DNA of 32,000 nt from positions 960,001 to 992,000 of the forward strand of contig NZ_LT934425.1 in assembly GCF_900232105.1 (NCBI RefSeq), in the 5' to 3' direction. Within the stretch, counting starts at the first letter, position 1, and each line of letters begins with the position of its first letter. Below, one piece after another: positions 3,685-31,036 of this stretch. The DNA comes from Candidatus Kuenenia stuttgartensis (GTDB lineage: Bacteria > Planctomycetota > Brocadiia > Brocadiales > Brocadiaceae). A program made the position numbers and the translations under genes. Under the pieces are notes generated by a model, which did not search any database, was not told the origin of the DNA, and saw only the letters and a program-made list of their open reading frames with translations.

Positions 3685-3828
3685 TTACATCCGGGTAAAC
3701 ACAAATTCATTACATGCTTTTCCACCTGCACAAGTCTTTAACTTTTCCAAAACAAACCCTCTTTCCCGGTAAAAGCTAAAAATCTCTTCTGGCTTTGCTA
3801 CTTCAAACGGATAACCGCCTAACCAATC
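3685..3828 (-). pseudogene. C-terminal remnant of a methyltransferase paralogue
   Basis: The minus strand reads DWLGGYPFEVAKPEEIFSFYRERGFVLEKLKTCAGGKACNEFVFTRM*. This is nearly identical to the last ~47 aa of 1608-2483. There is no upstream catalytic domain. Confidence 0.75.
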
Positions 3829-5357: not shown

Positions 5358-6263
5358 CAATCCATTCTCCCTTTCTCTGTACACGAGTGAACACAAACTG
5401 ATTGCATCCCAATCCACCGGCGCCGGTTTGCAGTTGATCCAGACGAAACCCCCTATCTCGATAGAAATTAAAAATTTCTTCAGGCTTTGCCACCTCAAAC
5501 GGGTACCCACCAATCCAATCGATCATATCGTGCCAGTAGCTCATGCCCCTTAAACTGCGTTCCGAGTAGCGAGTAACATTGTCAAAATAAACCCACGGCT
5601 TACATTTCAAGATGGCCAGGGTCAAGAACTTCAGTTCGCGCGGCCCCATGATCAGAATGGCATATGGCAATTTGAGGGGACGAGGCAGCGCATTGTATAT
5701 TCGCTTCAGCATTCGCCACCGCCGACTCCATCCGCCCTGGTCGTTATAAATCGCAATGAACAATTCCCCCCCCCCCCAGTAACCAGCGATGCCACATTGC
5801 CCAGTGCTTCCCACATTGCGCCAGTATGGTGTAAAACACCCCATGAATAAACGACGTCGAATGTTCCCAATGAACTCAAATAATTTGTGTCTAAAGCAGA
5901 ACCTTCTCCAATTGTCCAGTTGCTATCATTAGGGAAATAACGCCGTTTCAGCTCATGAGTACAGGCTACAGATTGCGGATCATAATCAAAAGAATGAACA
6001 TGAGCACCCAAACGCCGTGCTGCCAGACTGAATAATCCACTACCTGAACCAATATCCAGGAATGATTTTCCTTCCAAATCTTCAACATTCAACATAATTT
6101 TTAATGATCTTTTCGCTTCGAGAATTCTATCTTCATTTATGCAAGCAAAAAAATGCCGCCAGTTCTTGCCAAACTCAAAACGTTCCCCCTTTTTTATTTC
6201 CATCGAGTGATCATCCATACCTTCTATTCTCCTTTTACACAACCAGCCAATAACTCTTCCCAC
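5350..6263 (-). pseudogene. class I SAM methyltransferase, frameshifted in a homopolymer (paralogue of 1608-2483)
   Basis: Two overlapping ORFs (5706-6263 and 5350-5844) together cover a full-length paralogue. The frame switches exactly at the C12 run 5766-5777 (G12 on the coding strand). Confidence 0.85.
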
Positions 6264-14757: not shown

Positions 14758-14846
14758 GGTTTACATAACCTGAATTTGTTCATTAAAGATAGTCAGCACA
14801 CTAATTGTTGATACAATAAGCACTAGAAGTATTTGTAGAAGTACGT

Positions 14847-14925
14847 GAGGGTCTCATCTTAAATGTTAAGCAAATGTCCACGGTGACAAATAATATCCAA
14901 AATATGAAATAACAAATCCCAAATA
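14847..14925. repeat. ~79-bp dispersed repeat (second copy 23669-23747; related A/C-rich tracts at 17750-17830 and 21220-21280)
   Basis: GAGGG..CATCTTAAATGTTAAGCAAATG.CCACGGTGACAAATAATATCCAAAATATGAAATA is shared almost base for base between the two loci. Confidence 0.75.
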
Positions 14926-15189
14926 AATCACAAAATCCAATTTTCAAAATTCCAATTTAATAATTAATAATTACTCATCGCAAAAAAGTTTTGCCACGAA
15001 GGCGCAAATAGTTTTCTTACCACAGATGAACCCCGTACGATAACCTTCGGTTCCCCACAGGGCAGGCACGAATGGATACGAATAAGCGCAACTATCAGTG
15101 CTTGTGTCAGTGTTCAGTGTTAGACAATAAGTTTTGAGTTGCTGTTTTAGCATTAATAAGGTTCGTCTTTAAATTAACTGTGGGTATTT

Positions 15190-16467: not shown

Positions 16468-16642
16468 ACTACAATCCATCAACTTCTTGTTTTTTATGCT
16501 CGTTTTTCAAGCTGCACAAACGTAAGGCATTAATTAAATGATGCCTACGTAAAGTTTGGAGTATTGAGTTTTTGTCATTTGAAATTGTTTTGTATTTAGA
16601 TATTCGTATTTCGAATTTGGTTGCGGCCAAAGGCCGCGCCAA
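16468..16642 (-). mobile_element. 175-bp MITE derived from the ends of the 1,700-bp IS (copy 1)
   Basis: It is the same 175-bp sequence as 17899-18073 and 24828-25002. Its first ~45 bp and last ~25 bp match the two ends of the IS at 19374-21073. Confidence 0.85.
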
Positions 16643-17642: not shown

Positions 17643-17898
17643 GTATCAATATTCTCCTTTATAACCGCCATAGCCGTACACCATCTCCACTCAGAAAAGG
17701 GGGGAAAGGAACATATTTGGGGCCAGACCTCGAATATAGAAAACAAAATTCAGCCCGCAATATCCAAAATATGAAATACCAAAACTCAAATAACAAATTT
17801 CAAATAATATTCAAAATCCAATTTTAATAATACAAGTTTTATTATTTTCACCTGCCAAAGTTATTTTTACTCAATATCTTTTATCAGTGCTTATTCGT

Positions 17899-18073
17899 AC
17901 TACAATCCATCAACTTCTTGTTTTTTATGCTCGTTTTTCAAGCTGCACAAACGTAAGGCATTAATTAAATGATGCCTACGTAAAGTTTGGAGTATTGAGT
18001 TTTTGTCATTTGAAATTGTTTTGTATTTAGATATTCGTATTTCGAATTTGGTTGCGGCCAAAGGCCGCGCCAA
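17899..18073 (-). mobile_element. 175-bp MITE (copy 2), between dehydrogenase and epimerase genes
   Basis: It looks identical by eye to copy 1. The flanks read ttattcgt^gtatatccgtgg, a relative of the catccgt^gtgaattcgtgg target. Confidence 0.85.
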
Positions 18074-18103: not shown

Positions 18104-19373
18104 TTACGCTCTTTTTACCTTATCAGAATGATTCGTATGATTCTTAATTAAATTTCTCGTATCAACGATAAGTTTTGCATTTTTTAAGATAAATTCAGGG
18201 TCGTAATCCGAGTGCTCTGTTGCGATAAGAACGGCATCATATTTAGCAAGCGTCTCTGCATGTAAAGGAACGGAGCTATTATTAAATGTGTATTTCCTCA
18301 TTTTCGGGAGAACCGGTATATACGGGTCGTTATAGTCAACATGTGCATTTTTCTCCACAAGAAGCTCCATGATCTTCAGCGAGGGTGATTCACGGGTATC
18401 GTCTATATCCTTTTTATATGAAAGCCCCAGTATTAAAATCTTTGCGCCCTTAATGCTTTTCCCTTTCTCATTAAGCGCCTCAACAGTCTTTTGAACCACA
18501 TAATAGGGCATGTTGGTATTTATTTCCCCTGCAAGCTCTATAAACCGGGTGGAAAACTCATATTCCCTCGCCTTCCAGGTCAAATAAAAGGGATCGATAG
18601 GTATGCAATGTCCCCCAAGACCAGGGCCGGGATAAAATGCCTGAAATCCAAAGGGTTTTGTCTTTGCCGCCTCTATAACTTCCCAAACGTCAATCCCCAT
18701 CCTATCAAAGAGCATCTTCAGTTCGTTCACCAGCGCTATGTTCACAGATCTATAGATATTCTCAAGTAGTTTTGTGGCCTCCGCAACTCTTGTTGAAGAA
18801 ACCGGGACGGTCTTTACCACTACCGAATCATAAAGGGCTTGTGCAACGGTAAGACAATTATCCGTATAACCGCCAACCACTTTAGGGATTGTCCTTGTTG
18901 AAAAACCCTTATTATTCGGATCTTCCCGCTCCGGTGAAAACGCAAGATAAAAATCCTCACCAGCTTTTAACCCCGACTCCTCAAGTATGGGTCTCATGTC
19001 CTCATCCGTAGTCCCTGGATACGTAGTGGATTCAAGGACAATAAGCTGTCCCTTGCGAAGATTTCCGGCAATAGTCTTTGTTGTGTTAAAGACATATGAC
19101 ATATCAGGCTCACGGTATTTGTTCAGCGGCGTCGGAACACAGATGATGATACAGTCCATAGCTGATAACTTCGAGAAATCCGTGGTGGGGGTGAAACGCG
19201 ATCCGGCGTCCGTGATACGTGAACTATCAATATGTTTGATATAGCTTTTGCCCTGACTCAGTAATTTTACCTTTTCAGGGTCAATGTCGAAGCCTGTCAC
19301 CTGAAACCCTGCCTTGCAGAATTCAATGACCAGAGGCAATCCAACATAGCCGAGGCCGATAATGCCAATGTGT
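18104..19373 (-). pseudogene. nucleotide-sugar 6-dehydrogenase (WbpA/TviB/Ugd family), 5'-truncated by IS insertion
   Basis: The 411-aa ORF contains [15 protein letters not shown]. Reading past the annotated Met gives [18 protein letters not shown] (a Rossmann GxGxxG), which abuts the IS end at 19374. Confidence 0.85.
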
Positions 19374-21073
19374 ACTACTATCCATCAATTTCTTGTTTTT
19401 TATGCGTGTTTTTCATGCCGCCATTTCCGTAAGTGCTTTAATATCAAGGGCTGAAGCGGTCATCAGTGAACAAGAGAACTTCTGGCCTTTCTCCGTCAAA
19501 ACATAGCGGTTGGCCCTCGGAACTTTGCGGATTAGACCGTGTGCCCGCAGCATCTTTATCCGTCGGGTCGTTCGTCCGGAATATTTCTTTTGCTGATCCT
19601 TGCCGGATTGTTCGGATTCCCGGTAAAGCCACTTACGCAAATCATGGTTGCGGAATCCATTTATCGCGTTTTCGCCTTTGGACAGGAACATCAGCATCTG
19701 GTAATCATCCTGCTGCCAGGGATTCAAACCTCGATACCTCTTGCCCTCTTTGACAACCTTGTTACAAGCGCTGCTCACCACTTCTTTCAGTTTCTCCTCT
19801 ACCTGAGCCGCCGCCAAAGCATCCCCATAACGATCATTGCATTGTTGGCTCACCTCACACCGTCGATGAAGATCGCTTACGCCCTTACGCATCTTCTGCC
19901 ATGACGCCGGTTTGCCTTCATCATCATTGGGACTCCGAAAGACCTTAAAGTCCCGCGTATTATTGATCGTTGTCTCAATACGCAAGAGACTACCGCTCTT
20001 GTTATACATCTTCACTGAATTATAATTCACACTGTGCTTGACCCGTATACCTTCATAGCGTCTTCGATAGTCGCTGATAACCTCATCAGGGGCAGCGCCT
20101 GCAAGGTTACGCCTACCCAAATACTTCATCACCGAAGAACTGTCGCAAACCCGCATCGCATGATGAACAAACGATGGAAACAACTCCTCCAATGCCTCAA
20201 CCGATTTAAACATGATGTCCGTCGCCCACTCCGTCTCATCCGCAGACCAGTAATACTCCGGTTCCAACGGACGAAGAATCTGCGACAATGCCGGGCAACT
20301 GCCCAACGCAAGCCCGTTCAGCAGCTTCGCCCAGTCAGTCTTAAGCTGCTCATGGAGCAGAACCTGCGCAGCCGCAATATCCTCTATACGCACAAAACAG
20401 TTGCCGTCCTTAACATAATCAATACCTTGCTTCTGAAGTTGCCGCTCCAGCCAATGACGACCATTGAGACAAATGAAAATATTAAACGGCGCCCAACTCT
20501 GGATACGAACATGACCAAAACCAAACACTGGATCGTTAAAATAATGATACACAAAGACACACTTGCGGGGCGCCATTACCAACTCGAGCTTCTTGCTGGC
20601 CTTGTTGCCCTTGACCATCGGCGCAATACAAGGCTCTACCACACTCAACAGGCAGATGGAACCTTCCGTAATCCTCTTATCCGCCGCGATCTGGCGAGCC
20701 AACTTCTCCTTATCAACACCGCTGCTCATCAAATACCGCACCTCGATACCCAAATCTTTCGCCCGCGATTCACAACTGTCTCGCACCTGTGCCGTAAGCC
20801 CATTGACCCAACCGGAAAAATCCTTAAGCAGAATTCTCGCTTGGTTCATGAATGTTCCCATCCCACGCTCACTGGCCAACCACCGCAATGTCCCGCGAAA
20901 ACGAATCCTGTCCAGACCGCTTATTGCACCCACGATCCTGTCTCGATATAATTCCATCAACTTATTCATAAGTAGTGTCCTCCAAATTGTCTGATTACTA
21001 TTTACGAGGATACTACTATACTTTATAATAAACTAAAAATCACCTTTTTGGTTGCGGCCAAAGGCCGCGCTAG
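19374..21073 (-). mobile_element. atypical 1,700-bp insertion sequence, copy 1 (no TIR, no TSD)
   Basis: The boundaries are set by in-frame restoration of the dehydrogenase gene and by comparison with an empty paralogous target at 24616-24630. The ends read ACTACTATCCATC... and ...GGTTGCGGCCAAAGGCCGCGCTAG. Confidence 0.85.
19413..20969 (-). CDS. 518-aa IS-encoded protein, putative transposase of unrecognised family
   Basis: It is the only long ORF of the element and is identical in all three copies. An RBS GGAGGA lies upstream. The C-terminus is basic and winged-helix-like (RRIKMLRAHGLIRKVPRANRYVLTEKG). Confidence 0.8.
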   Translation of the reverse strand: MNKLMELYRDRIVGAISGLDRIRFRGTLRWLASERGMGTFMNQARILLKDFSGWVNGLTAQVRDSCESRAKDLGIEVRYLMSSGVDKEKLARQIAADKRITEGSICLLSVVEPCIAPMVKGNKASKKLELVMAPRKCVFVYHYFNDPVFGFGHVRIQSWAPFNIFICLNGRHWLERQLQKQGIDYVKDGNCFVRIEDIAAAQVLLHEQLKTDWAKLLNGLALGSCPALSQILRPLEPEYYWSADETEWATDIMFKSVEALEELFPSFVHHAMRVCDSSSVMKYLGRRNLAGAAPDEVISDYRRRYEGIRVKHSVNYNSVKMYNKSGSLLRIETTINNTRDFKVFRSPNDDEGKPASWQKMRKGVSDLHRRCEVSQQCNDRYGDALAAAQVEEKLKEVVSSACNKVVKEGKRYRGLNPWQQDDYQMLMFLSKGENAINGFRNHDLRKWLYRESEQSGKDQQKKYSGRTTRRIKMLRAHGLIRKVPRANRYVLTEKGQKFSCSLMTASALDIKALTEMAA

Positions 21074-21117
21074 GCCTTCTTTGATTTAATTTTTTCGATT
21101 ATACTGTAAGAGTTCAT
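21074..21117 (-). pseudogene. first 14 codons of the IS-split dehydrogenase gene
   Basis: ATG AAC TCT TAC AGT ATA ATC GAA AAA ATT AAA TCA AAG AAG GC joins in frame to A CAC ATT GGC... at 19373. Confidence 0.75.
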
Positions 21118-21470: not shown

Positions 21471-21805
21471 CAAATTTCAAATAATTTCAAAGATCAAATT
21501 CCCGAAATCCAAAACAGTATTATTCTGATGATATACCAGTAATGTATAGGAAATTCAAAGTTGCCACTAAGACACCAAGGTTTTTCTTTGTGGCTTTGTG
21601 TCTTCGTGGCGAAAAAGTCGTCGAAGGCCTAATTTACAAGGACTTCGTCCCTCTCAGTTACATGAATAACTTATGTAACAAGTGAACGGATACAGCATAA
21701 ATCTGGCAGTCGGCAATTTGCCGGGCGTCGAGTGCTACGGCATCTTGGAAAATTCCAGGGCTTTATGCCATACGCAGCCAAAAAGAGTTTAACCACAAAG
21801 GGCTT

Positions 21806-21879
21806 GGCGCGGCCTTTGGCTGAAACCAAATTCGAAATACGAATATCGAAATACGAAACAAATTCAAATGATAAAAAAC
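21806..21879 (+). mobile_element. partial copy of the 175-bp MITE in opposite orientation, interrupted by another MITE
   Basis: CTTGGCGCGGCCTTTGGCTGAAACCAAATTCGAAATACGAATATCGAAATACGAAACAAATTCAAATGATAAAAAAC is the reverse complement of the hairpin half of the MITE. Homology resumes at 22030-22052 (...CAAATACTCCAAACT). Confidence 0.6.
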
Positions 21880-22029
21880 GTAATACTTTAGTTTTTTGAA
21901 AAATTCCAATAATAACATTGTTTTGCCGCACGGTGTAGGGGCGAAGCATTTGCATGTCCGGGCATGAACGCATTTATGCCAGTTATTGCAAATGCTTCGC
22001 CCCTACGGTCTCAAAAAACTAAATTGTTA
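21880..22029. mobile_element. second member of the GTAA(C/T)ACTTTAG...TIR MITE family, different core
   Basis: The ends are GTAATACTTTAGTTTTTTGAAAAA and TCAAAAAACTAAATTGTTAC. The core holds an inner palindrome GTAGGGGCGAAGCATTTGCA...TGCAAATGCTTCGCCCCTAC. Confidence 0.6.
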
Positions 22030-22594: not shown

Positions 22595-22747
22595 GTAACA
22601 CTTTAGTTTTTTGAAAAAGTAAGGGCGAAGCATTTGCCAGTTTAGGTATGAACACATTTATGACAATTTACAGCAAATGCTTCGCCCCCCCTACACTATG
22701 CGGCAAACATCGCTAATGTTAGAATTTTTAAAAAAACTAACGCGGTA
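22595..22747. mobile_element. third, degenerate member of the same MITE family
   Basis: The left TIR GTAACACTTTAGTTTTTTGAAAAA is intact and the right end is degenerate (TTTTTAAAAAAACTAACGCGGTAAAG). The core again contains GGGCGAAGCATTTGC...GCAAATGCTTCGCCC. Confidence 0.45.
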
Positions 22748-22832
22748 AAGATAGGTTTGAAACCTGTCTCTACGTTACTATTAATCCCTACTGATTGCTT
22801 TTTTTGCAAAGAATAGGGAATGCACAAGTAGA

Positions 22833-23041
22833 ATCCGGTGTCCGTGATCCGGAAACTATCAATATGTTTTATGTAGCTTTTGCCCTGGCTCAACAATTTT
22901 ACCTTTTCAGGACCAATGTCGAAGCCGGTAACCTGAAACCCGGCCTTGCAGAATTCAATGACCAGTGGCAATCCAACATTAGCGGAGTCCGATAACACCA
23001 ATATGCGACTTCTTTGATTTAATTTTTTCGATTAGTTCCAT
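22833..23041 (-). pseudogene. degenerate duplicate of the dehydrogenase gene 5' end (uninterrupted by IS)
   Basis: MELIEKIKSKKSHIGVIG... is followed by a 1-nt insertion and then ...[40 protein letters not shown]. This matches 19160-19373 plus 21074-21100. Homology ends near 22833. Confidence 0.75.
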
Positions 23042-23537: not shown

Positions 23538-23795
23538 AGTTTATCCCTCCTTATTTATCCGTATTGTCAATGAGAAAATCTGGGGACAGGCCTTGACGGC
23601 CTGTTGCCAGAATTCCCTTTTAAAAAATACCTCTATGTCCACCCATCTATAAAATACCATGAAAACATGAGGGCCGCATCTTAAATGTTAAGCAAATGCC
23701 CACGGTGACAAATAATATCCAAAATATGAAATACCAAAAATCAAATATACCAGGTAGATATTTATAAGAAAATCTATTCAAAATACTTTTTTGTA

Positions 23796-24399: not shown

Positions 24400-24432
24400 A
24401 TTTCCTCCTTCCGAAGTATTTGGGGTCACGAA

Positions 24433-24559
24433 GTATTTGTGGTCAGATCTTGAATATAGAATACAAAATTCAGCCTGCATCTTTTTAAGTATTCTTTGTA
24501 ATTATTTTTGCCACCAGATGAACACTGATAAAAATTTCTTTATAACCTCTTATAAATAA
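24433..24559 (-). repeat. ~127-bp block shared upstream of two unrelated TA operons (second copy 30642-30767; partial copy 17706-17757)
   Basis: The two copies align by eye with about 5 mismatches. Both begin 15-35 bp upstream of the first gene of a minus-strand TA pair. Confidence 0.75.
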
Positions 24560-24827
24560 CTACGGATGAACTCTGATGAACTCTGATAAAGAGGTTAATA
24601 ATATTGATCCGTGTTCATCCGTGTGAATTCGTGGTTAAGTTTTAGTACACTATTCTTTTCCATTCGAGCTTCGGTTTGCCAAAATTTACTATAATACCTT
24701 TGTCAACCACGGATGAACACTGATGAACACTGATAAAAATTTCTTTATAACCTCTTATAAATAACTACAGATGAACACTGAGAAATACGGTTAAAGAGGT
24801 TGATAATATTGATCCGTGTTCATCCGT

Positions 24828-25002
24828 ACTACAATCCATCAACTTCTTGTTTTTTATGCTCGTTTTTCAAGCTGCACAAACGTAAGGCATTAATTAAATG
24901 ATGCCTACGTAAAGTTTGGAGTATTGAGTTTTTGTCATTTGAAATTGTTTTGTATTTAGATATTCGTATTTCGAATTTGGTTGCGGCCAAAGGCCGCGCC
25001 AA
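24828..25002 (-). mobile_element. 175-bp MITE (copy 3) at a unit junction of the tandem array
   Basis: catccgt[ACTACAATCC...GGCCGCGCCAA]gtgaattc. Confidence 0.85.
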
Positions 25003-25197
25003 GTGAATTCGTGGTTAAATTTTAGTACACTATTCTTTTCCATTCGAGCTTCGGGTTGCCAAAATTTACTATAATACCTTTGTTAACCACGGATGAACAC
25101 CGATGAACACTGATAAAAATTTCTTTATAACCTCTTATAAATAACTACAGATGAACTCTGAGAAATACGGTTAAAGAGGTTGATAATATTGATCCGT

Positions 25198-26897
25198 ACT
25201 ACTATCCATCAATTTCTTGTTTTTTATGCGTGTTTTTCATGCCGCCATTTCCGTAAGTGCTTTAATATCAAGGGCTGAAGCGGTCATCAGTGAACAAGAG
25301 AACTTCTGGCCTTTCTCCGTCAAAACATAGCGGTTGGCCCTCGGAACTTTGCGGATTAGACCGTGTGCCCGCAGCATCTTTATCCGTCGGGTCGTTCGTC
25401 CGGAATATTTCTTTTGCTGATCCTTGCCGGATTGTTCGGATTCCCGGTAAAGCCACTTACGCAAATCATGGTTGCGGAATCCATTTATCGCGTTTTCGCC
25501 TTTGGACAGGAACATCAGCATCTGGTAATCATCCTGCTGCCAGGGATTCAAACCTCGATACCTCTTGCCCTCTTTGACAACCTTGTTACAAGCGCTGCTC
25601 ACCACTTCTTTCAGTTTCTCCTCTACCTGAGCCGCCGCCAAAGCATCCCCATAACGATCATTGCATTGTTGGCTCACCTCACACCGTCGATGAAGATCGC
25701 TTACGCCCTTACGCATCTTCTGCCATGACGCCGGTTTGCCTTCATCATCATTGGGACTCCGAAAGACCTTAAAGTCCCGCGTATTATTGATCGTTGTCTC
25801 AATACGCAAGAGACTACCGCTCTTGTTATACATCTTCACTGAATTATAATTCACACTGTGCTTGACCCGTATACCTTCATAGCGTCTTCGATAGTCGCTG
25901 ATAACCTCATCAGGGGCAGCGCCTGCAAGGTTACGCCTACCCAAATACTTCATCACCGAAGAACTGTCGCAAACCCGCATCGCATGATGAACAAACGATG
26001 GAAACAACTCCTCCAATGCCTCAACCGATTTAAACATGATGTCCGTCGCCCACTCCGTCTCATCCGCAGACCAGTAATACTCCGGTTCCAACGGACGAAG
26101 AATCTGCGACAATGCCGGGCAACTGCCCAACGCAAGCCCGTTCAGCAGCTTCGCCCAGTCAGTCTTAAGCTGCTCATGGAGCAGAACCTGCGCAGCCGCA
26201 ATATCCTCTATACGCACAAAACAGTTGCCGTCCTTAACATAATCAATACCTTGCTTCTGAAGTTGCCGCTCCAGCCAATGACGACCATTGAGACAAATGA
26301 AAATATTAAACGGCGCCCAACTCTGGATACGAACATGACCAAAACCAAACACTGGATCGTTAAAATAATGATACACAAAGACACACTTGCGGGGCGCCAT
26401 TACCAACTCGAGCTTCTTGCTGGCCTTGTTGCCCTTGACCATCGGCGCAATACAAGGCTCTACCACACTCAACAGGCAGATGGAACCTTCCGTAATCCTC
26501 TTATCCGCCGCGATCTGGCGAGCCAACTTCTCCTTATCAACACCGCTGCTCATCAAATACCGCACCTCGATACCCAAATCTTTCGCCCGCGATTCACAAC
26601 TGTCTCGCACCTGTGCCGTAAGCCCATTGACCCAACCGGAAAAATCCTTAAGCAGAATTCTCGCTTGGTTCATGAATGTTCCCATCCCACGCTCACTGGC
26701 CAACCACCGCAATGTCCCGCGAAAACGAATCCTGTCCAGACCGCTTATTGCACCCACGATCCTGTCTCGATATAATTCCATCAACTTATTCATAAGTAGT
26801 GTCCTCCAAATTGTCTGATTACTATTTACGAGGATACTACTATACTTTATAATAAACTAAAAATCACCTTTTTGGTTGCGGCCAAAGGCCGCGCTAG
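25198..26897 (-). mobile_element. atypical 1,700-bp IS, copy 2
   Basis: gatccgt[ACTACTATCC...GGCCGCGCTAG]gtgaatttg. The encoded protein is identical to copy 1. Confidence 0.85.
25237..26793 (-). CDS. 518-aa IS-encoded protein (copy 2)
   Basis: The translation is identical to 19413-20969. Confidence 0.8.
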   Translation of the reverse strand: MNKLMELYRDRIVGAISGLDRIRFRGTLRWLASERGMGTFMNQARILLKDFSGWVNGLTAQVRDSCESRAKDLGIEVRYLMSSGVDKEKLARQIAADKRITEGSICLLSVVEPCIAPMVKGNKASKKLELVMAPRKCVFVYHYFNDPVFGFGHVRIQSWAPFNIFICLNGRHWLERQLQKQGIDYVKDGNCFVRIEDIAAAQVLLHEQLKTDWAKLLNGLALGSCPALSQILRPLEPEYYWSADETEWATDIMFKSVEALEELFPSFVHHAMRVCDSSSVMKYLGRRNLAGAAPDEVISDYRRRYEGIRVKHSVNYNSVKMYNKSGSLLRIETTINNTRDFKVFRSPNDDEGKPASWQKMRKGVSDLHRRCEVSQQCNDRYGDALAAAQVEEKLKEVVSSACNKVVKEGKRYRGLNPWQQDDYQMLMFLSKGENAINGFRNHDLRKWLYRESEQSGKDQQKKYSGRTTRRIKMLRAHGLIRKVPRANRYVLTEKGQKFSCSLMTASALDIKALTEMAA

Positions 26898-27102
26898 GTG
26901 AATTTGTGGTTAAATTTTAGTACACCAATCTTTTCCATTCGAGCTTCGGGTTGCCAAAATTTACTATAATACCTTTGTTAACCACGGATGAACACTGATG
27001 AACACTGATAAAAATTTCTTTATAACCTCTTATAAATAACTACAGATGAACTCTGAGAAATACGGTTAAAGAGGTTGATAATATTGATCCGTGTTCATCC
27101 GT

Positions 27103-28802
27103 ACTACTATCCATCAATTTCTTGTTTTTTATGCGTGTTTTTCATGCCGCCATTTCCGTAAGTGCTTTAATATCAAGGGCTGAAGCGGTCATCAGTGAAC
27201 AAGAGAACTTCTGGCCTTTCTCCGTCAAAACATAGCGGTTGGCCCTCGGAACTTTGCGGATTAGACCGTGTGCCCGCAGCATCTTTATCCGTCGGGTCGT
27301 TCGTCCGGAATATTTCTTTTGCTGATCCTTGCCGGATTGTTCGGATTCCCGGTAAAGCCACTTACGCAAATCATGGTTGCGGAATCCATTTATCGCGTTT
27401 TCGCCTTTGGACAGGAACATCAGCATCTGGTAATCATCCTGCTGCCAGGGATTCAAACCTCGATACCTCTTGCCCTCTTTGACAACCTTGTTACAAGCGC
27501 TGCTCACCACTTCTTTCAGTTTCTCCTCTACCTGAGCCGCCGCCAAAGCATCCCCATAACGATCATTGCATTGTTGGCTCACCTCACACCGTCGATGAAG
27601 ATCGCTTACGCCCTTACGCATCTTCTGCCATGACGCCGGTTTGCCTTCATCATCATTGGGACTCCGAAAGACCTTAAAGTCCCGCGTATTATTGATCGTT
27701 GTCTCAATACGCAAGAGACTACCGCTCTTGTTATACATCTTCACTGAATTATAATTCACACTGTGCTTGACCCGTATACCTTCATAGCGTCTTCGATAGT
27801 CGCTGATAACCTCATCAGGGGCAGCGCCTGCAAGGTTACGCCTACCCAAATACTTCATCACCGAAGAACTGTCGCAAACCCGCATCGCATGATGAACAAA
27901 CGATGGAAACAACTCCTCCAATGCCTCAACCGATTTAAACATGATGTCCGTCGCCCACTCCGTCTCATCCGCAGACCAGTAATACTCCGGTTCCAACGGA
28001 CGAAGAATCTGCGACAATGCCGGGCAACTGCCCAACGCAAGCCCGTTCAGCAGCTTCGCCCAGTCAGTCTTAAGCTGCTCATGGAGCAGAACCTGCGCAG
28101 CCGCAATATCCTCTATACGCACAAAACAGTTGCCGTCCTTAACATAATCAATACCTTGCTTCTGAAGTTGCCGCTCCAGCCAATGACGACCATTGAGACA
28201 AATGAAAATATTAAACGGCGCCCAACTCTGGATACGAACATGACCAAAACCAAACACTGGATCATTAAAATAATGATACACAAAGACACACTTGCGGGGC
28301 GCCATTACCAACTCGAGCTTCTTGCTGGCCTTGTTGCCCTTGACCATCGGCGCAATACAAGGCTCTACCACACTCAACAGGCAGATGGAACCTTCCGTAA
28401 TCCTCTTATCCGCCGCGATCTGGCGAGCCAACTTCTCCTTATCAACACCGCTGCTCATCAAATACCGCACCTCGATACCCAAATCTTTCGCCCGCGATTC
28501 ACAACTGTCTCGCACCTGTGCCGTAAGCCCATTGACCCAACCGGAAAAATCCTTAAGCAGAATTCTCGCTTGGTTCATGAATGTTCCCATCCCACGCTCA
28601 CTGGCCAACCACCGCAATGTCCCGCGAAAACGAATCCTGTCCAGACCGCTTATTGCACCCACGATCCTGTCTCGATATAATTCCATCAACTTATTCATAA
28701 GTAGTGTCCTCCAAATTGTCTGATTACTATTTACGAGGATACTACTATACTTTATAATAAACTAAAAATCACCTTTTTGGTTGCGGCCAAAGGCCGCGCT
28801 AG
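27103..28802 (-). mobile_element. atypical 1,700-bp IS, copy 3
   Basis: catccgt[ACTACTATCC...GGCCGCGCTAG]gtgaattc. It has one synonymous difference from copy 1 (A28264 vs G20535). Confidence 0.85.
27142..28698 (-). CDS. 518-aa IS-encoded protein (copy 3)
   Basis: The translation is identical to 19413-20969. Confidence 0.8.
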   Translation of the reverse strand: MNKLMELYRDRIVGAISGLDRIRFRGTLRWLASERGMGTFMNQARILLKDFSGWVNGLTAQVRDSCESRAKDLGIEVRYLMSSGVDKEKLARQIAADKRITEGSICLLSVVEPCIAPMVKGNKASKKLELVMAPRKCVFVYHYFNDPVFGFGHVRIQSWAPFNIFICLNGRHWLERQLQKQGIDYVKDGNCFVRIEDIAAAQVLLHEQLKTDWAKLLNGLALGSCPALSQILRPLEPEYYWSADETEWATDIMFKSVEALEELFPSFVHHAMRVCDSSSVMKYLGRRNLAGAAPDEVISDYRRRYEGIRVKHSVNYNSVKMYNKSGSLLRIETTINNTRDFKVFRSPNDDEGKPASWQKMRKGVSDLHRRCEVSQQCNDRYGDALAAAQVEEKLKEVVSSACNKVVKEGKRYRGLNPWQQDDYQMLMFLSKGENAINGFRNHDLRKWLYRESEQSGKDQQKKYSGRTTRRIKMLRAHGLIRKVPRANRYVLTEKGQKFSCSLMTASALDIKALTEMAA

Positions 28803-28950
28803 GTGAATTCGTGGTTAAATTTTAGTACACTATTCTTTTCCGTTCGAGCTTCGGTTTGCCAAAATTTACTATAATACCTTTGTTAACCACGGATGAACAC
28901 CGATGAACACTGATAAAAATTTCTTTATAACCTCTTATAAATAACCACGG

Positions 28951-29737
28951 ATGTACAGTAGAGTAGAAACCAGACGACAAGAACTTAGGCAGAAGTTTGT
29001 TTTCTCTGTTTGCTGGCTGGTTTCCCGCCAGTGCCACCATATCTCCGCCATATACTTATCATCTGCCCCCCTCGTCAAACCGTGCATGCGATTTTCCCGC
29101 ACACGGCTTTCCGACAGTCTTCTTCTTAAGCTTTCACAGGTTGTCTGGCAGAAACATATTTTGTCGGGTCTATTAGTCCATATCTATTGACTAATTCCTT
29201 AAACGCTCCTCGATTATAGAGCTTGCTCCTGCGCTGACTTTTCCTCTTATAATATCTCGTCAATCTCCTGAAAAGATAATATCGTAGGTCTCTTCTTCCT
29301 GCTTGGCTTTTCGATATAGTTTACGCTGAAAGTCTCGGACTCTTTCCTCATCGCTCTTTTGCGATTTCGGTATTGATAGTATGCGTTACGGTCATCAACC
29401 TGAATAATGAGACCTCCCAAGTTCATTTATATACCTTTTACAGTCATACCGTCACTCTCAACTCCGACGACACCGCATAGTTCTACCGTTTGTCTCTTGC
29501 TACCTATGCGATTACAGATTTCACCCTCTCTGGGAGGCTCATCTATCGTATTTTTAGCGTAACTAAGCCTGCGTGTTCGCTTGCACTACGGTCTGACTGC
29601 TCGCTACAGGGAACTCGAACGTATTCATCGCTGTTTACGTCCTCCCGTGAGGCTTTCTGCCTCTTTCACTACCGCCCGAACGGTCAATTGGCGGGTTGGA
29701 TTTGCACCAACTGATATATATACGCTTCTTGGCGTAC
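28951..29737 (-). mobile_element. ORF-deleted group II intron remnant (boundaries approximate)
   Basis: Domain V-like AAGCCGTGTGCGGGAAAATCGCATGCACGGTTT lies on the minus strand at 29077-29109, with an AGC triad, a GAAA loop and a 2-nt bulge. RT remnants include the N-terminal FQRKLYRKAKQEE (~29293-29335) joined to the C-terminal LYNRGAFKELVNRYGLIDPTKYV. A candidate 5' end is GTACGCC at 29737. Confidence 0.6.
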
Positions 29738-30627: not shown

Positions 30628-31036
30628 GGTTTGTCAAGCAAATATTTGGGGTCAGACCTTGAATATAGAATACAAAATTCAGCCCGCATCTTTTTAAGTA
30701 TTCTTTGTAATTATTTTTGCCACCAGATGAACACTGCTAAAAATTTCTTTATAACCTCTTATAAATATAGCCAAACAAATATGATTTTAGGAATTTGGCA
30801 ATAAAATGGCTTTCTAAAAAACAGATTTATTTGACTAAGCATACTATACAACCCCCTTTCCGGAAAGATTTCAACAAAATCCTTATTTTAAGCGGGTTTC
30901 CACAAATTCAAAATAATATGTAGTCGCAGAATAAATGGCCTATTTATTAATACAAATCCTTTATAACCCTATAAATACTGACTTGACAAAATATTTTATT
31001 AATGATAGTGTAGTCAAAGAATATTGGGACTACATT

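Follow-up and report, generated by a model that had tools for sequence, protein, structure and literature searches.

An unannotated insertion sequence family of Candidatus Kuenenia stuttgartensis, probably moved by a TBP-fold, Rep_trans-like tyrosine nickase

A 32,000-nt stretch of the Candidatus Kuenenia stuttgartensis genome (NZ_LT934425.1, positions 960,001 to 992,000; hereafter the window, whose numbering is used throughout) contains three near-identical copies of a 1,700-bp element that encodes one protein of 518 residues. The element is an autonomous insertion sequence (IS) accompanied by non-autonomous 175-nt miniature inverted-repeat transposable elements (MITEs), with the single protein most likely as its transposase, and it is a near certainty that this is a real, autonomous and so far unannotated IS family. 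The protein matches no transposase model, and what its sequence conceals its predicted structure may reveal: a core shaped like the TATA-binding protein (TBP), with invariant residues arranged as in the Rep_trans nickases of rolling-circle plasmids. Taken as a whole, the evidence points to a new IS family moved by a TBP-fold, metal-dependent, non-HUH tyrosine nicking-joining enzyme, an explanation that on balance is probably correct.

All three copies lie on the minus strand, at 19374-21073 (copy 1), 25198-26897 (copy 2) and 27103-28802 (copy 3), each with one 518-codon open reading frame (ORF; 19413-20969, 25237-26793 and 27142-28698). Copies 1 and 2 are identical, and copy 3 differs by one nucleotide at offset 1161 (G20535 vs A28264). 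Copy 1 interrupts a UDP-sugar dehydrogenase gene on the minus strand (3' part 18104-19373, 5' part 21074-21117), while copies 2 and 3 occupy successive units of a 205-nt tandem array. An empty paralogous unit of this array, catccgt^gtgaattc at 24616-24630, gives the exact boundaries of the IS and shows no target-site duplication (TSD). In ORF orientation this unoccupied preferred target (24603-24633, minus strand) reads CCACGAATTCAC^ACGGATGAAC-ACGGATCAAT, where 24622 and 24623 are the positions on either side of the insertion point. Deletion of copy 1 restores an uninterrupted 437-residue UDP-glucose/GDP-mannose dehydrogenase with three UDPG_MGDP_dh Pfam domains, the N-terminal one starting at residue 16, right at the IS junction. 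A pseudogene fragment at ~22696-23040 on the minus strand duplicates the N-terminus of the dehydrogenase (90% identity over 147 nt, with an in-frame stop directly after …GVIGLR). Its N-terminal part (about 23040-22980) aligns without a gap across the copy 1 junction, and so provides an independent empty-site reference. A 2-bp AC duplication was considered and rejected, since ACAC is already present in the empty unit and copy 1 has GC on one side and AC on the other. The ends of the IS, CTAGCGCGG... and ...GGATAGTAGT, are unrelated to each other, and an inverted-repeat check found no repeat involving both termini.

The MITEs have both ends in common with the IS, about 45 nt at the right end and about 27 nt at the hairpin end. 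The three of them, all 175 nt long and on the minus strand, lie at 16468-16642, at 17899-18073, just downstream of the dehydrogenase stop codon, and at 24828-25002, where its place within a 205-nt unit matches that of the IS copies. A degenerate, truncated fourth MITE end emerged from the inverted-repeat pairs at ~21804-21880, inverted on the plus strand, with a mutated hairpin (TTCAGCC...GGCCGC) adjoining a target-like flank, TTTGTGGTTAAA. An original prediction, drawn from the letters of the window, had claimed the three copies with their identical proteins and one difference, ends exact to the base from the empty site and the dehydrogenase fusion, no terminal inverted repeats (TIRs), no TSD, a GC hairpin 5 nt from one tip and three MITE relatives; all of these hold, with the pseudogene paralogue and the fourth MITE end as additions. 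Throughout the window the plus strand has a strongly negative GC skew (-0.10 to -0.22), and most of the long ORFs lie on the minus strand, as does every full copy of the IS and the MITE. Here it is the ORF-sense strand that is rich in G, and the window insertions are not independent of one another.

The same element recurs far beyond this genome. Homologues of the 518-aa protein number more than 4,500 among the candidates scored in a 90%-identity clustered collection, and about 5,500 representative clusters at 50% identity (664 of them below 1e-30). From other genomes and metagenomes 136 loci were fetched, the metagenome scan having the single window protein as its query. Contigs that carry homologues are typically 1.7-2 kb long, the signature of an assembly-breaking repeat whose unit is just this gene. 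The closest genome matches are from anammox Brocadiaceae, and more distant relatives come from Desulfobacterota, Acidobacteriota, Planctomycetota, Pseudomonadota, Bacteroidota and a few bins labelled archaeal. 'Hypothetical protein' was the only source name given for the homologues listed and for ten clusters looked up; a plasmid homologue bears the annotation ArsR regulator. Multi-copy genomes show an abrupt loss of identity at the same end motifs, also when their proteins share only 41-45% identity with the window protein.

Alignment of flanks over other loci, a check that had been proposed with the original prediction, recovered the same ends and, with 83 right and 48 left junctions, all distinct, defined the target. 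The base preceding the left end is C in 48/48. The right flank starts with AC in 74/83 junctions, a count partly biased by the search pattern, and ACRRA follows the right end in 67/83, motif positions 3 to 5 being unconstrained by that pattern; a further (C)ACRRA lies about 10 nt upstream in the left flank in 34 of the 48. The family inserts at C^ACRRA (ORF orientation), usually inside arrays of CACRGATnnAC repeats spaced by 10 nt, the preferred site, often preceded by TTAG, TTAA or CTAG. One target sequence of this kind is CACGGATGAAC^ACGGAT. A sequence-specific target had thus been correctly anticipated, while the proposed GT^G is only the local form of this family-wide motif; copy 1 entered a degenerate version, caaagaaggc^acaca. 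At one locus (L028) a MITE lies exactly between the right end of an IS and its ACAGA flank, which shows that insertion leaves the target motif intact and available for further use. At another (L024) two elements are 9-10 nt apart. Small right-end duplications of (A)TAGTAGT occur at L008 and L066: the former, from Planctomycetia H5_AMX3, has a duplicated ATAGTAGT at its right end together with an internal in-frame deletion of residues about 81-163, and the latter has an extra GTAGT.

In the window the repeat arrays take the form of a run of ~205-nt tandem units (24517-29007) with CACRGATnnAC 10-mers in both orientations; the first unit is empty, the second hosts a MITE and the next two an IS each. 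Motifs of this type number 20 in the window against 2.5 expected, and the units in which MITE 3 and IS copies 2 and 3 lie have them as their inverted ends. Each unit itself resembles a ~125-nt MITE bounded by TTAA and by inverted ends of three 10-nt CACRGATnnAC repeats, and a three-repeat context of this kind also flanks the IS family in unrelated metagenomes. The arrays may represent the termini of a different family of elements, or serve as substrates for the 518-aa protein itself.

The two ends of the IS are built differently. The left-end module, upstream of the ORF (21047-21073, minus strand), reads CTA-GCGCGGCC-TTT-GGCCGC-AACCAAA and contains the GC hairpin GCGGCC-AAA-GGCCGC at 21054-21068, 5 nt from the tip. 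Folding z-scores of -3.0 for this end and of -0.3 and +1.1 for the opposite one place a hairpin at one end only. At other loci, 58 distinct end sequences contain the module, and over the 136 loci the family left end can be written, in ORF orientation, as NNN-GCGCGGC(C)-loop-(G)GCCGC-AACCAAA, or in compact form as NNN-GCGCGGC-loop-GCCGCAACCAAA. The loop varies among loci in sequence and length, one compensatory stem change was seen (GCGGGC/GCCCGC) and nested hairpins occur occasionally. Stem variants compatible with G·T pairing comprise GCAGCC, on the antisense strand, in several lineages and one variant on the sense strand; these may slightly favour the antisense strand as the one used, and are too few to decide. 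An RNAalifold consensus structure for a second conserved hairpin after AACCAAA is absent on both strands. The right-end module, downstream of the ORF (19374-19386, minus strand), reads GATGGATAGTAGT in ORF orientation and resembles one target repeat, so that the IS right end (GAYGGATWGTAGT) looks like one further unit of the target array; GGAT(A/T)GTAGT is the right terminus in nearly all of the 83 distinct insertions.

Between the left end and the start codon lies a structured 5' leader. Within the 5' untranslated region (UTR), an RNA hairpin at 20971-21017 on the minus strand sequesters the GGAGG ribosome-binding site (RBS) just before the ATG and overlaps a conserved TATAGT -10-like box; the whole 124-nt leader, this hairpin included, folds at -32.6 kcal/mol (z = -3.3), and GTATAGTAG(C/T)ATCC is kept in it across the family. 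The RBS hairpin pairs GUAGUAUCCUC with GGAGGACACUAC and is conserved in other copies and loci, including one of different sequence (L006) that maintains the same pairing with UAGUAGCAUCC and GGAUGCUACUA. On these predicted structures, the hairpin appears to restrain expression of the transposase gene. An Rfam search gave no RNA match for the IS.

What kind of enzyme is the 518-aa protein? Searches of Pfam, NCBIfam, PHROG and PDB sequences, made with the single sequence, with 74 diverse relatives and with their profile, returned nothing beyond a C-terminal winged helix-turn-helix (wHTH) of MarR/ArsR type at about residues 460-505. No transposase model matched the protein in Pfam, NCBIfam or PHROG, or the 74 relatives in Pfam, so the claim that it stands outside recognised transposase families is borne out. 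DDE RNase-H-like, HUH Y1_Tnp and HUH Y2_Tnp / Zn_Tnp_IS91 domains gave no match in Pfam or NCBIfam (nor in the 74 relatives by Pfam), DEDD (RuvC-like), C-terminal serine, Phage_integrase and Resolvase domains none in Pfam or NCBIfam, and the junction sequences contain no crossover core common to element and target. By sequence, the protein lies outside what defines DDE, DEDD, serine and tyrosine-recombinase enzymes and is a member of neither Rep_trans nor Rep-Arvir, the archaeal replication initiators discussed below.

Structure prediction is more informative. An AlphaFold2 model built with the 74 relatives is confident (pLDDT 92.7, pTM 0.80) and orders its secondary structure as β-α-β4-α twice, followed by the wHTH. 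The fold class of the model is a TBP-like pseudo-dimeric core (about residues 1-390 of the ORF product of copy 1) joined to a MarR-type wHTH (about 420-518). Foldseek matches in its favour are yeast TBP in the PDB (probability 0.82) and, in the BFVD database, a viral TBP (E 4.5e-4, probability 0.99) and TBP-like proteins of African swine fever virus. The structural check suggested with the original prediction thus gave a TBP-like fold and no RNase-H-like, HUH or recombinase fold. Of the earlier view that only a basic, winged-helix-like C-terminus could be read in the protein, the winged helix stands; the rest is not featureless, the model placing a TBP-like core there with invariant residues that match those of Rep_trans.

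These residues come from a conservation set of 74 sequences, 30-69% identical to the window protein, in which only 16 columns are invariant; they include D20, E112, Y141, Y143, N169, N190, E247, Y322, R330 and E332. In the Rep_trans protein RepD the active site consists of D46, R140xD142xA144xD146, T176xY178xG180, R189xY191xK193 and R212xE214, with Y191 as the nucleophile and D46, D142 and E214, from three separate strands, as the metal ligands (PMC4797284). A Rep_trans alignment built here confirmed which of these residues are conserved. The 518-aa protein presents five motifs in the same order: on the first strand, GFDRxxFRG with D20 against SFDAMTIVG with D46 in RepD; on the first strand of the second repeat, E247xA249xD251 against D142xA144xD146; then G307xR309 against G180xR182; on the fourth strand, K320xY322xK324 against R189xY191xK193; and on the fifth, R330xE332 against R212xE214. 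The five motifs, all invariant or nearly so within the family, are collinear with those of RepD and fall on equivalent β-strands of the predicted model, KMYNK/RIYNK and LRIE/WRVE being near-identical, and D20, E247, Y322, R330 and E332 make up five of the 16 invariant columns.

A precedent for such a hidden relationship exists. Rolling-circle initiators of the archaeal Rep-Arvir group (DUF7845, PF25227; for example RepSNJ2 of the pleolipovirus SNJ2) have the TBP-like fold and active site of bacterial Rep_trans (PMC13107129, 2026), the TBP-like fold being that of the Rep_trans catalytic domain, and the relationship cannot be seen from sequence (PMC13107129). Fusion to a MarR-like wHTH is a hallmark of Rep-Arvir, and the behaviour reported for it in Foldseek searches (PMC13107129) is that of the 518-aa protein, with wHTH matches in the PDB and TBP matches in BFVD. 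A control model of a genuine DUF7845 protein reproduced the TBP and inovirus Rep_trans matches of that study, and shared the BFVD entries A0A2K9R7J5 and A0A5B8XC72 with the 518-aa protein. The two groups have in common a TBP-like nuclease followed by a MarR-like wHTH, a conserved hairpin as cis element and a similar catalytic spacing (E25, D207, Y283 and E303 in Rep-Arvir (PMC13107129) vs D20, E247/D251, Y322 and E332 here). They differ in that the IS hosts are bacterial apart from the few bins labelled archaeal, and in that the role of the IS is transposition whereas Rep-Arvir serves virus and plasmid replication. PF25227 matched none of the 74 members, while the positive controls HRPV-3 ORF9 and HHPV3 ORF11 scored E = 1e-115 and 1e-108. 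The tyrosine motif of the 518-aa protein, KMYNK, is nearer to RIYNK of Rep_trans than to KHYYM of Rep-Arvir.

With Rep_trans proper (PF02486: RepC/RepD of pT181/pC221, RstA of CTXphi, the MOBT relaxases of Tn916, ICESt3 and ICEBs1), the protein would share the TBP-like β-sheet core and the order of motifs on equivalent strands, namely a first-strand acidic residue, [DE]xAxD, GxR, [RK]xYxK and RxE. A DNA hairpin adjoins the processed site in both, and both would carry out single-strand work on a mobile element. Unlike Rep_trans, the 518-aa protein is about 200 residues longer, ends in a MarR wHTH and shows no significant sequence or profile similarity (PF02486 does not match even at E = 10), and it comes from a 1.7-kb chromosomal IS with defined ends, not from a plasmid, phage or integrative and conjugative element (ICE). 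The proposed link to Rep_trans would rest on fold class, domain plan and motifs together.

From this resemblance we infer how the 518-aa protein could catalyse transposition, what strand it would cut and what intermediate it would form. The enzyme would be a dimer dependent on a tyrosine and a metal, with Y322, within the KxYxK motif, as putative nucleophile and D20, E247 or D251, and E332 as putative metal ligands. Its winged helix would read both the hairpin module and the ACGGAT-type repeat that the right end and the target have in common, and its catalytic core would nick one strand at each junction to give a 5'-phosphotyrosine link. The strand might then move as a displaced or excised single strand, or through rolling-circle copy-out, and would be joined to a target that is nicked in the same way; a circular or tandem intermediate would show the junction ...GATAGTAGT joined directly to CTAGCGCGGCC.... 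A nicking-joining mechanism would explain why the ends are dissimilar, why only one of them has a hairpin, why neither a TSD nor inverted repeats are present and why the target motif is retained. It would also explain the head-to-tail arrangements at L024 and L028 and the right-end (A)TAGTAGT duplications at L008 and L066. This mechanistic assignment can be called reasonably probable.

Several observations weigh against it. With hhalign, full profiles of the family gave a probability below 1% against RepC, a 10-member Rep_trans alignment and a 28-member DUF7845 alignment. The control comparison of DUF7845 with Rep_trans was likewise not significant; because the method also misses this published pair, the negative profile comparison carries no information. 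In favour of the link, its best local alignments were exactly the tyrosine motif, SVNYNSVKMYNK vs RDSNRFIRIYNK (P = 0.002), and the D20/D46 motif; restricted sub-profiles yielded short motif-level matches only. Foldseek found nothing significant in the PDB (no match with E < 0.02), the TBP matches, among its best there, included; RepDE and RepSTK1 were not in the PDB top 50, and the inovirus Rep_trans entry was not listed for the 518-aa protein in BFVD. The IS junction lies 5 nt outside the hairpin stem, whereas the Rep_trans site is in the loop, as at pT181 origins, and the two junction sequences are dissimilar. Finally, by a crude proxy, orientation relative to local GC skew is unbiased (positive at 26 of 52 loci), which does not support a need for the lagging-strand template such as IS608 has.

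Could the TBP-like sheet be a convergent scaffold, and the protein a transposase whose chemistry is unrelated to Rep_trans? It might be a hydrolytic metal nuclease, or use Y141/Y143 as nucleophile, in a double-stranded cut-and-paste or site-specific reaction. The missing profile similarity to Rep_trans and DUF7845 and the absence of RepDE from the PDB list would fit such an enzyme, as would the invariant residues of the first half-domain that have no Rep_trans counterpart (E112, Y141, Y143, N169 and N190). Against it stand the five collinear motif matches on equivalent strands, KMYNK/RIYNK and LRIE/WRVE among them, and a single hairpin end, no TSD, no TIR and a retained target are features of a nicking-joining enzyme. 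We regard unrelated chemistry as unlikely, though it is the most serious of the alternatives.

The known transposable elements offer a second line of comparison. Classical DDE elements differ throughout: the IS has no TIR and no TSD, and its protein has no RNase-H-like domain match and a TBP-like predicted fold. The HUH Y2 elements of the IS91/ISCR and Helitron groups are similar in having one ORF, a size of about 1.5-2 kb, dissimilar ends without TIR or TSD, a hairpin near one end, a short specific insertion sequence and tandem or one-ended products; their HUH/Y2_Tnp domain is lacking here, where the fold is different, and the IS91/ISCR target is GTTC/CTTG as against the longer C^ACRRA in 10-nt repeats. 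IS200/IS605 elements, moved by the HUH Y1 TnpA through 'peel and paste', likewise have no TSD or TIR, a subterminal hairpin, MITE-like derivatives and a conserved target motif that abuts one end and is retained, permitting tandem insertions; their association with short genomic repeats is comparable as well (repetitive extragenic palindromic, REP, sequences and the REP-associated tyrosine transposases, RAYTs). They have hairpins at both ends, where this IS has one, and a protein of about 150 residues, against 518 non-HUH residues here, and no GC-skew orientation bias was detected. By analogy, the element would act like an IS91, Helitron or IS200/IS605 element, yet its protein has none of the features by which theirs are defined; IS200/IS605 and IS91, named as analogues from the start, are apt for the mode of working and not for membership.

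Might another enzyme move the ends in trans? If the 518-aa protein were a DNA-binding or regulatory passenger, with a host HUH transposase or a Xer-type recombinase doing the work, the ArsR annotation of the plasmid homologue would be apt, and TBP itself is not an enzyme; the MITEs show, moreover, that the ends can be moved without a gene in cis. This is nonetheless improbable. The ORF and its two specific ends have been kept together across phyla in 1.7-kb units without a second gene, contigs of typically ~1.7-2 kb have this gene alone as their repeat unit, and the sheet face of the predicted model displays invariant D, E, Y, K and R residues, which points to catalysis.

Site-specific recombination of the IS110/IS1111 kind (IS4321/IS5075, IS621) is more doubtful still. 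Those elements also make no TSD and take a fixed position inside repeats or the ends of other elements, and the absence of TIRs, the specific target within repeats and the structured, conserved 5' non-coding end of this IS would suit a non-coding RNA at the hairpin end that pairs with target and donor. No DEDD (RuvC-like) or serine catalytic domain was found, however, nor any evidence of a guide RNA: lineages hardly vary in the 27-nt end module and do not differ in the target motif, so that nothing suggests a reprogrammable guide, Rfam gave no match, and the only 5' UTR structures are the terminal hairpin and the one that sequesters the RBS. The place of copies 2 and 3 in a tandem 205-nt array prompts a last rival, in which segmental duplication or an error of assembly, the latter an objection raised with the original prediction, produced the copies without transposition. 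It is refuted by copy 1 lying with base-exact boundaries in an unrelated gene, by flanking units only 85-95% identical around IS copies 1 nt apart, and by family-wide junctions, with the same ends in 136 loci elsewhere, sharp boundaries in multi-copy genomes and hundreds of independent insertions.

Other repeats surround the elements. Group II intron matches from Rfam directly adjoin the last 205-nt unit on the minus strand, one to domains V/VI at 28958-29111 (47.9 bits, above the gathering threshold) and one to D1-D4 at 29581-29713 (37.7 bits, below threshold), with no obvious intron ORF; the sequence just 3' of the intron bears the ATCCGTGG repeat motif, as in the 205-nt units. A dispersed short repeat unrelated to the IS ends (ATATTTGGGGYCAGAYCTYGAATATAGAA...) occurs at 17713-17759, 24433-24479 and 30642-30688 (and, longer, at 24431-24558 and 30640-30767). 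An A-rich, low-complexity intergenic repeat (…AATATCCAAAATATGAAATAMCAAA…) lies between polysaccharide-type genes at 14843-14965, 17757-17846 and 23665-23787, with CACRGAT-like motifs near it at 15021 and 15067. The upstream gene cluster has internal duplications, 2023-2322 vs 5803-6102 (92%) and 1626-1757, 3697-3828 and 5389-5520 (69-82%), suggesting paralogous genes.

The family is abundant in bacteria of sediment, groundwater and bioreactors and has so far been invisible to annotation. Rep_trans/TBP-fold nickases have been known from rolling-circle plasmids, filamentous phages and ICE relaxases and, since 2026, from archaeal viruses; the literature searched contains no description of a Rep_trans or TBP-fold transposase or transposon, nor of this end sequence. 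The chances are slightly better than even that the 518-aa protein is the first member of an additional catalytic class among the transposases of prokaryotes, beside DDE, DEDD, HUH, serine and tyrosine-recombinase enzymes. Such an enzyme would be Rep_trans-like, carry its own MarR-type reader and bring the 1.7-kb IS and its MITEs, without TSD or TIR, into arrays of 10-nt CACRGAT repeats that the right end of the IS imitates. If the proposed mechanism is right, Rep_trans/TBP-fold nickases would also have been recruited as transposases, paralleling the HUH enzymes in IS91, IS200 and Helitrons, and IS classification would gain one transposase class. With its Rep_trans-like tyrosine motif and its Rep-Arvir-like wHTH fusion, the family would form a third branch linking bacterial Rep_trans and archaeal Rep-Arvir. 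It would offer a compact single-protein system for mechanistic study, with a long and readable target (C^ACRRA in 10-nt repeats), and would give a name and a function to the thousands of genes, now "hypothetical" or mis-named "ArsR/MarR regulator", that fragment metagenome assemblies.

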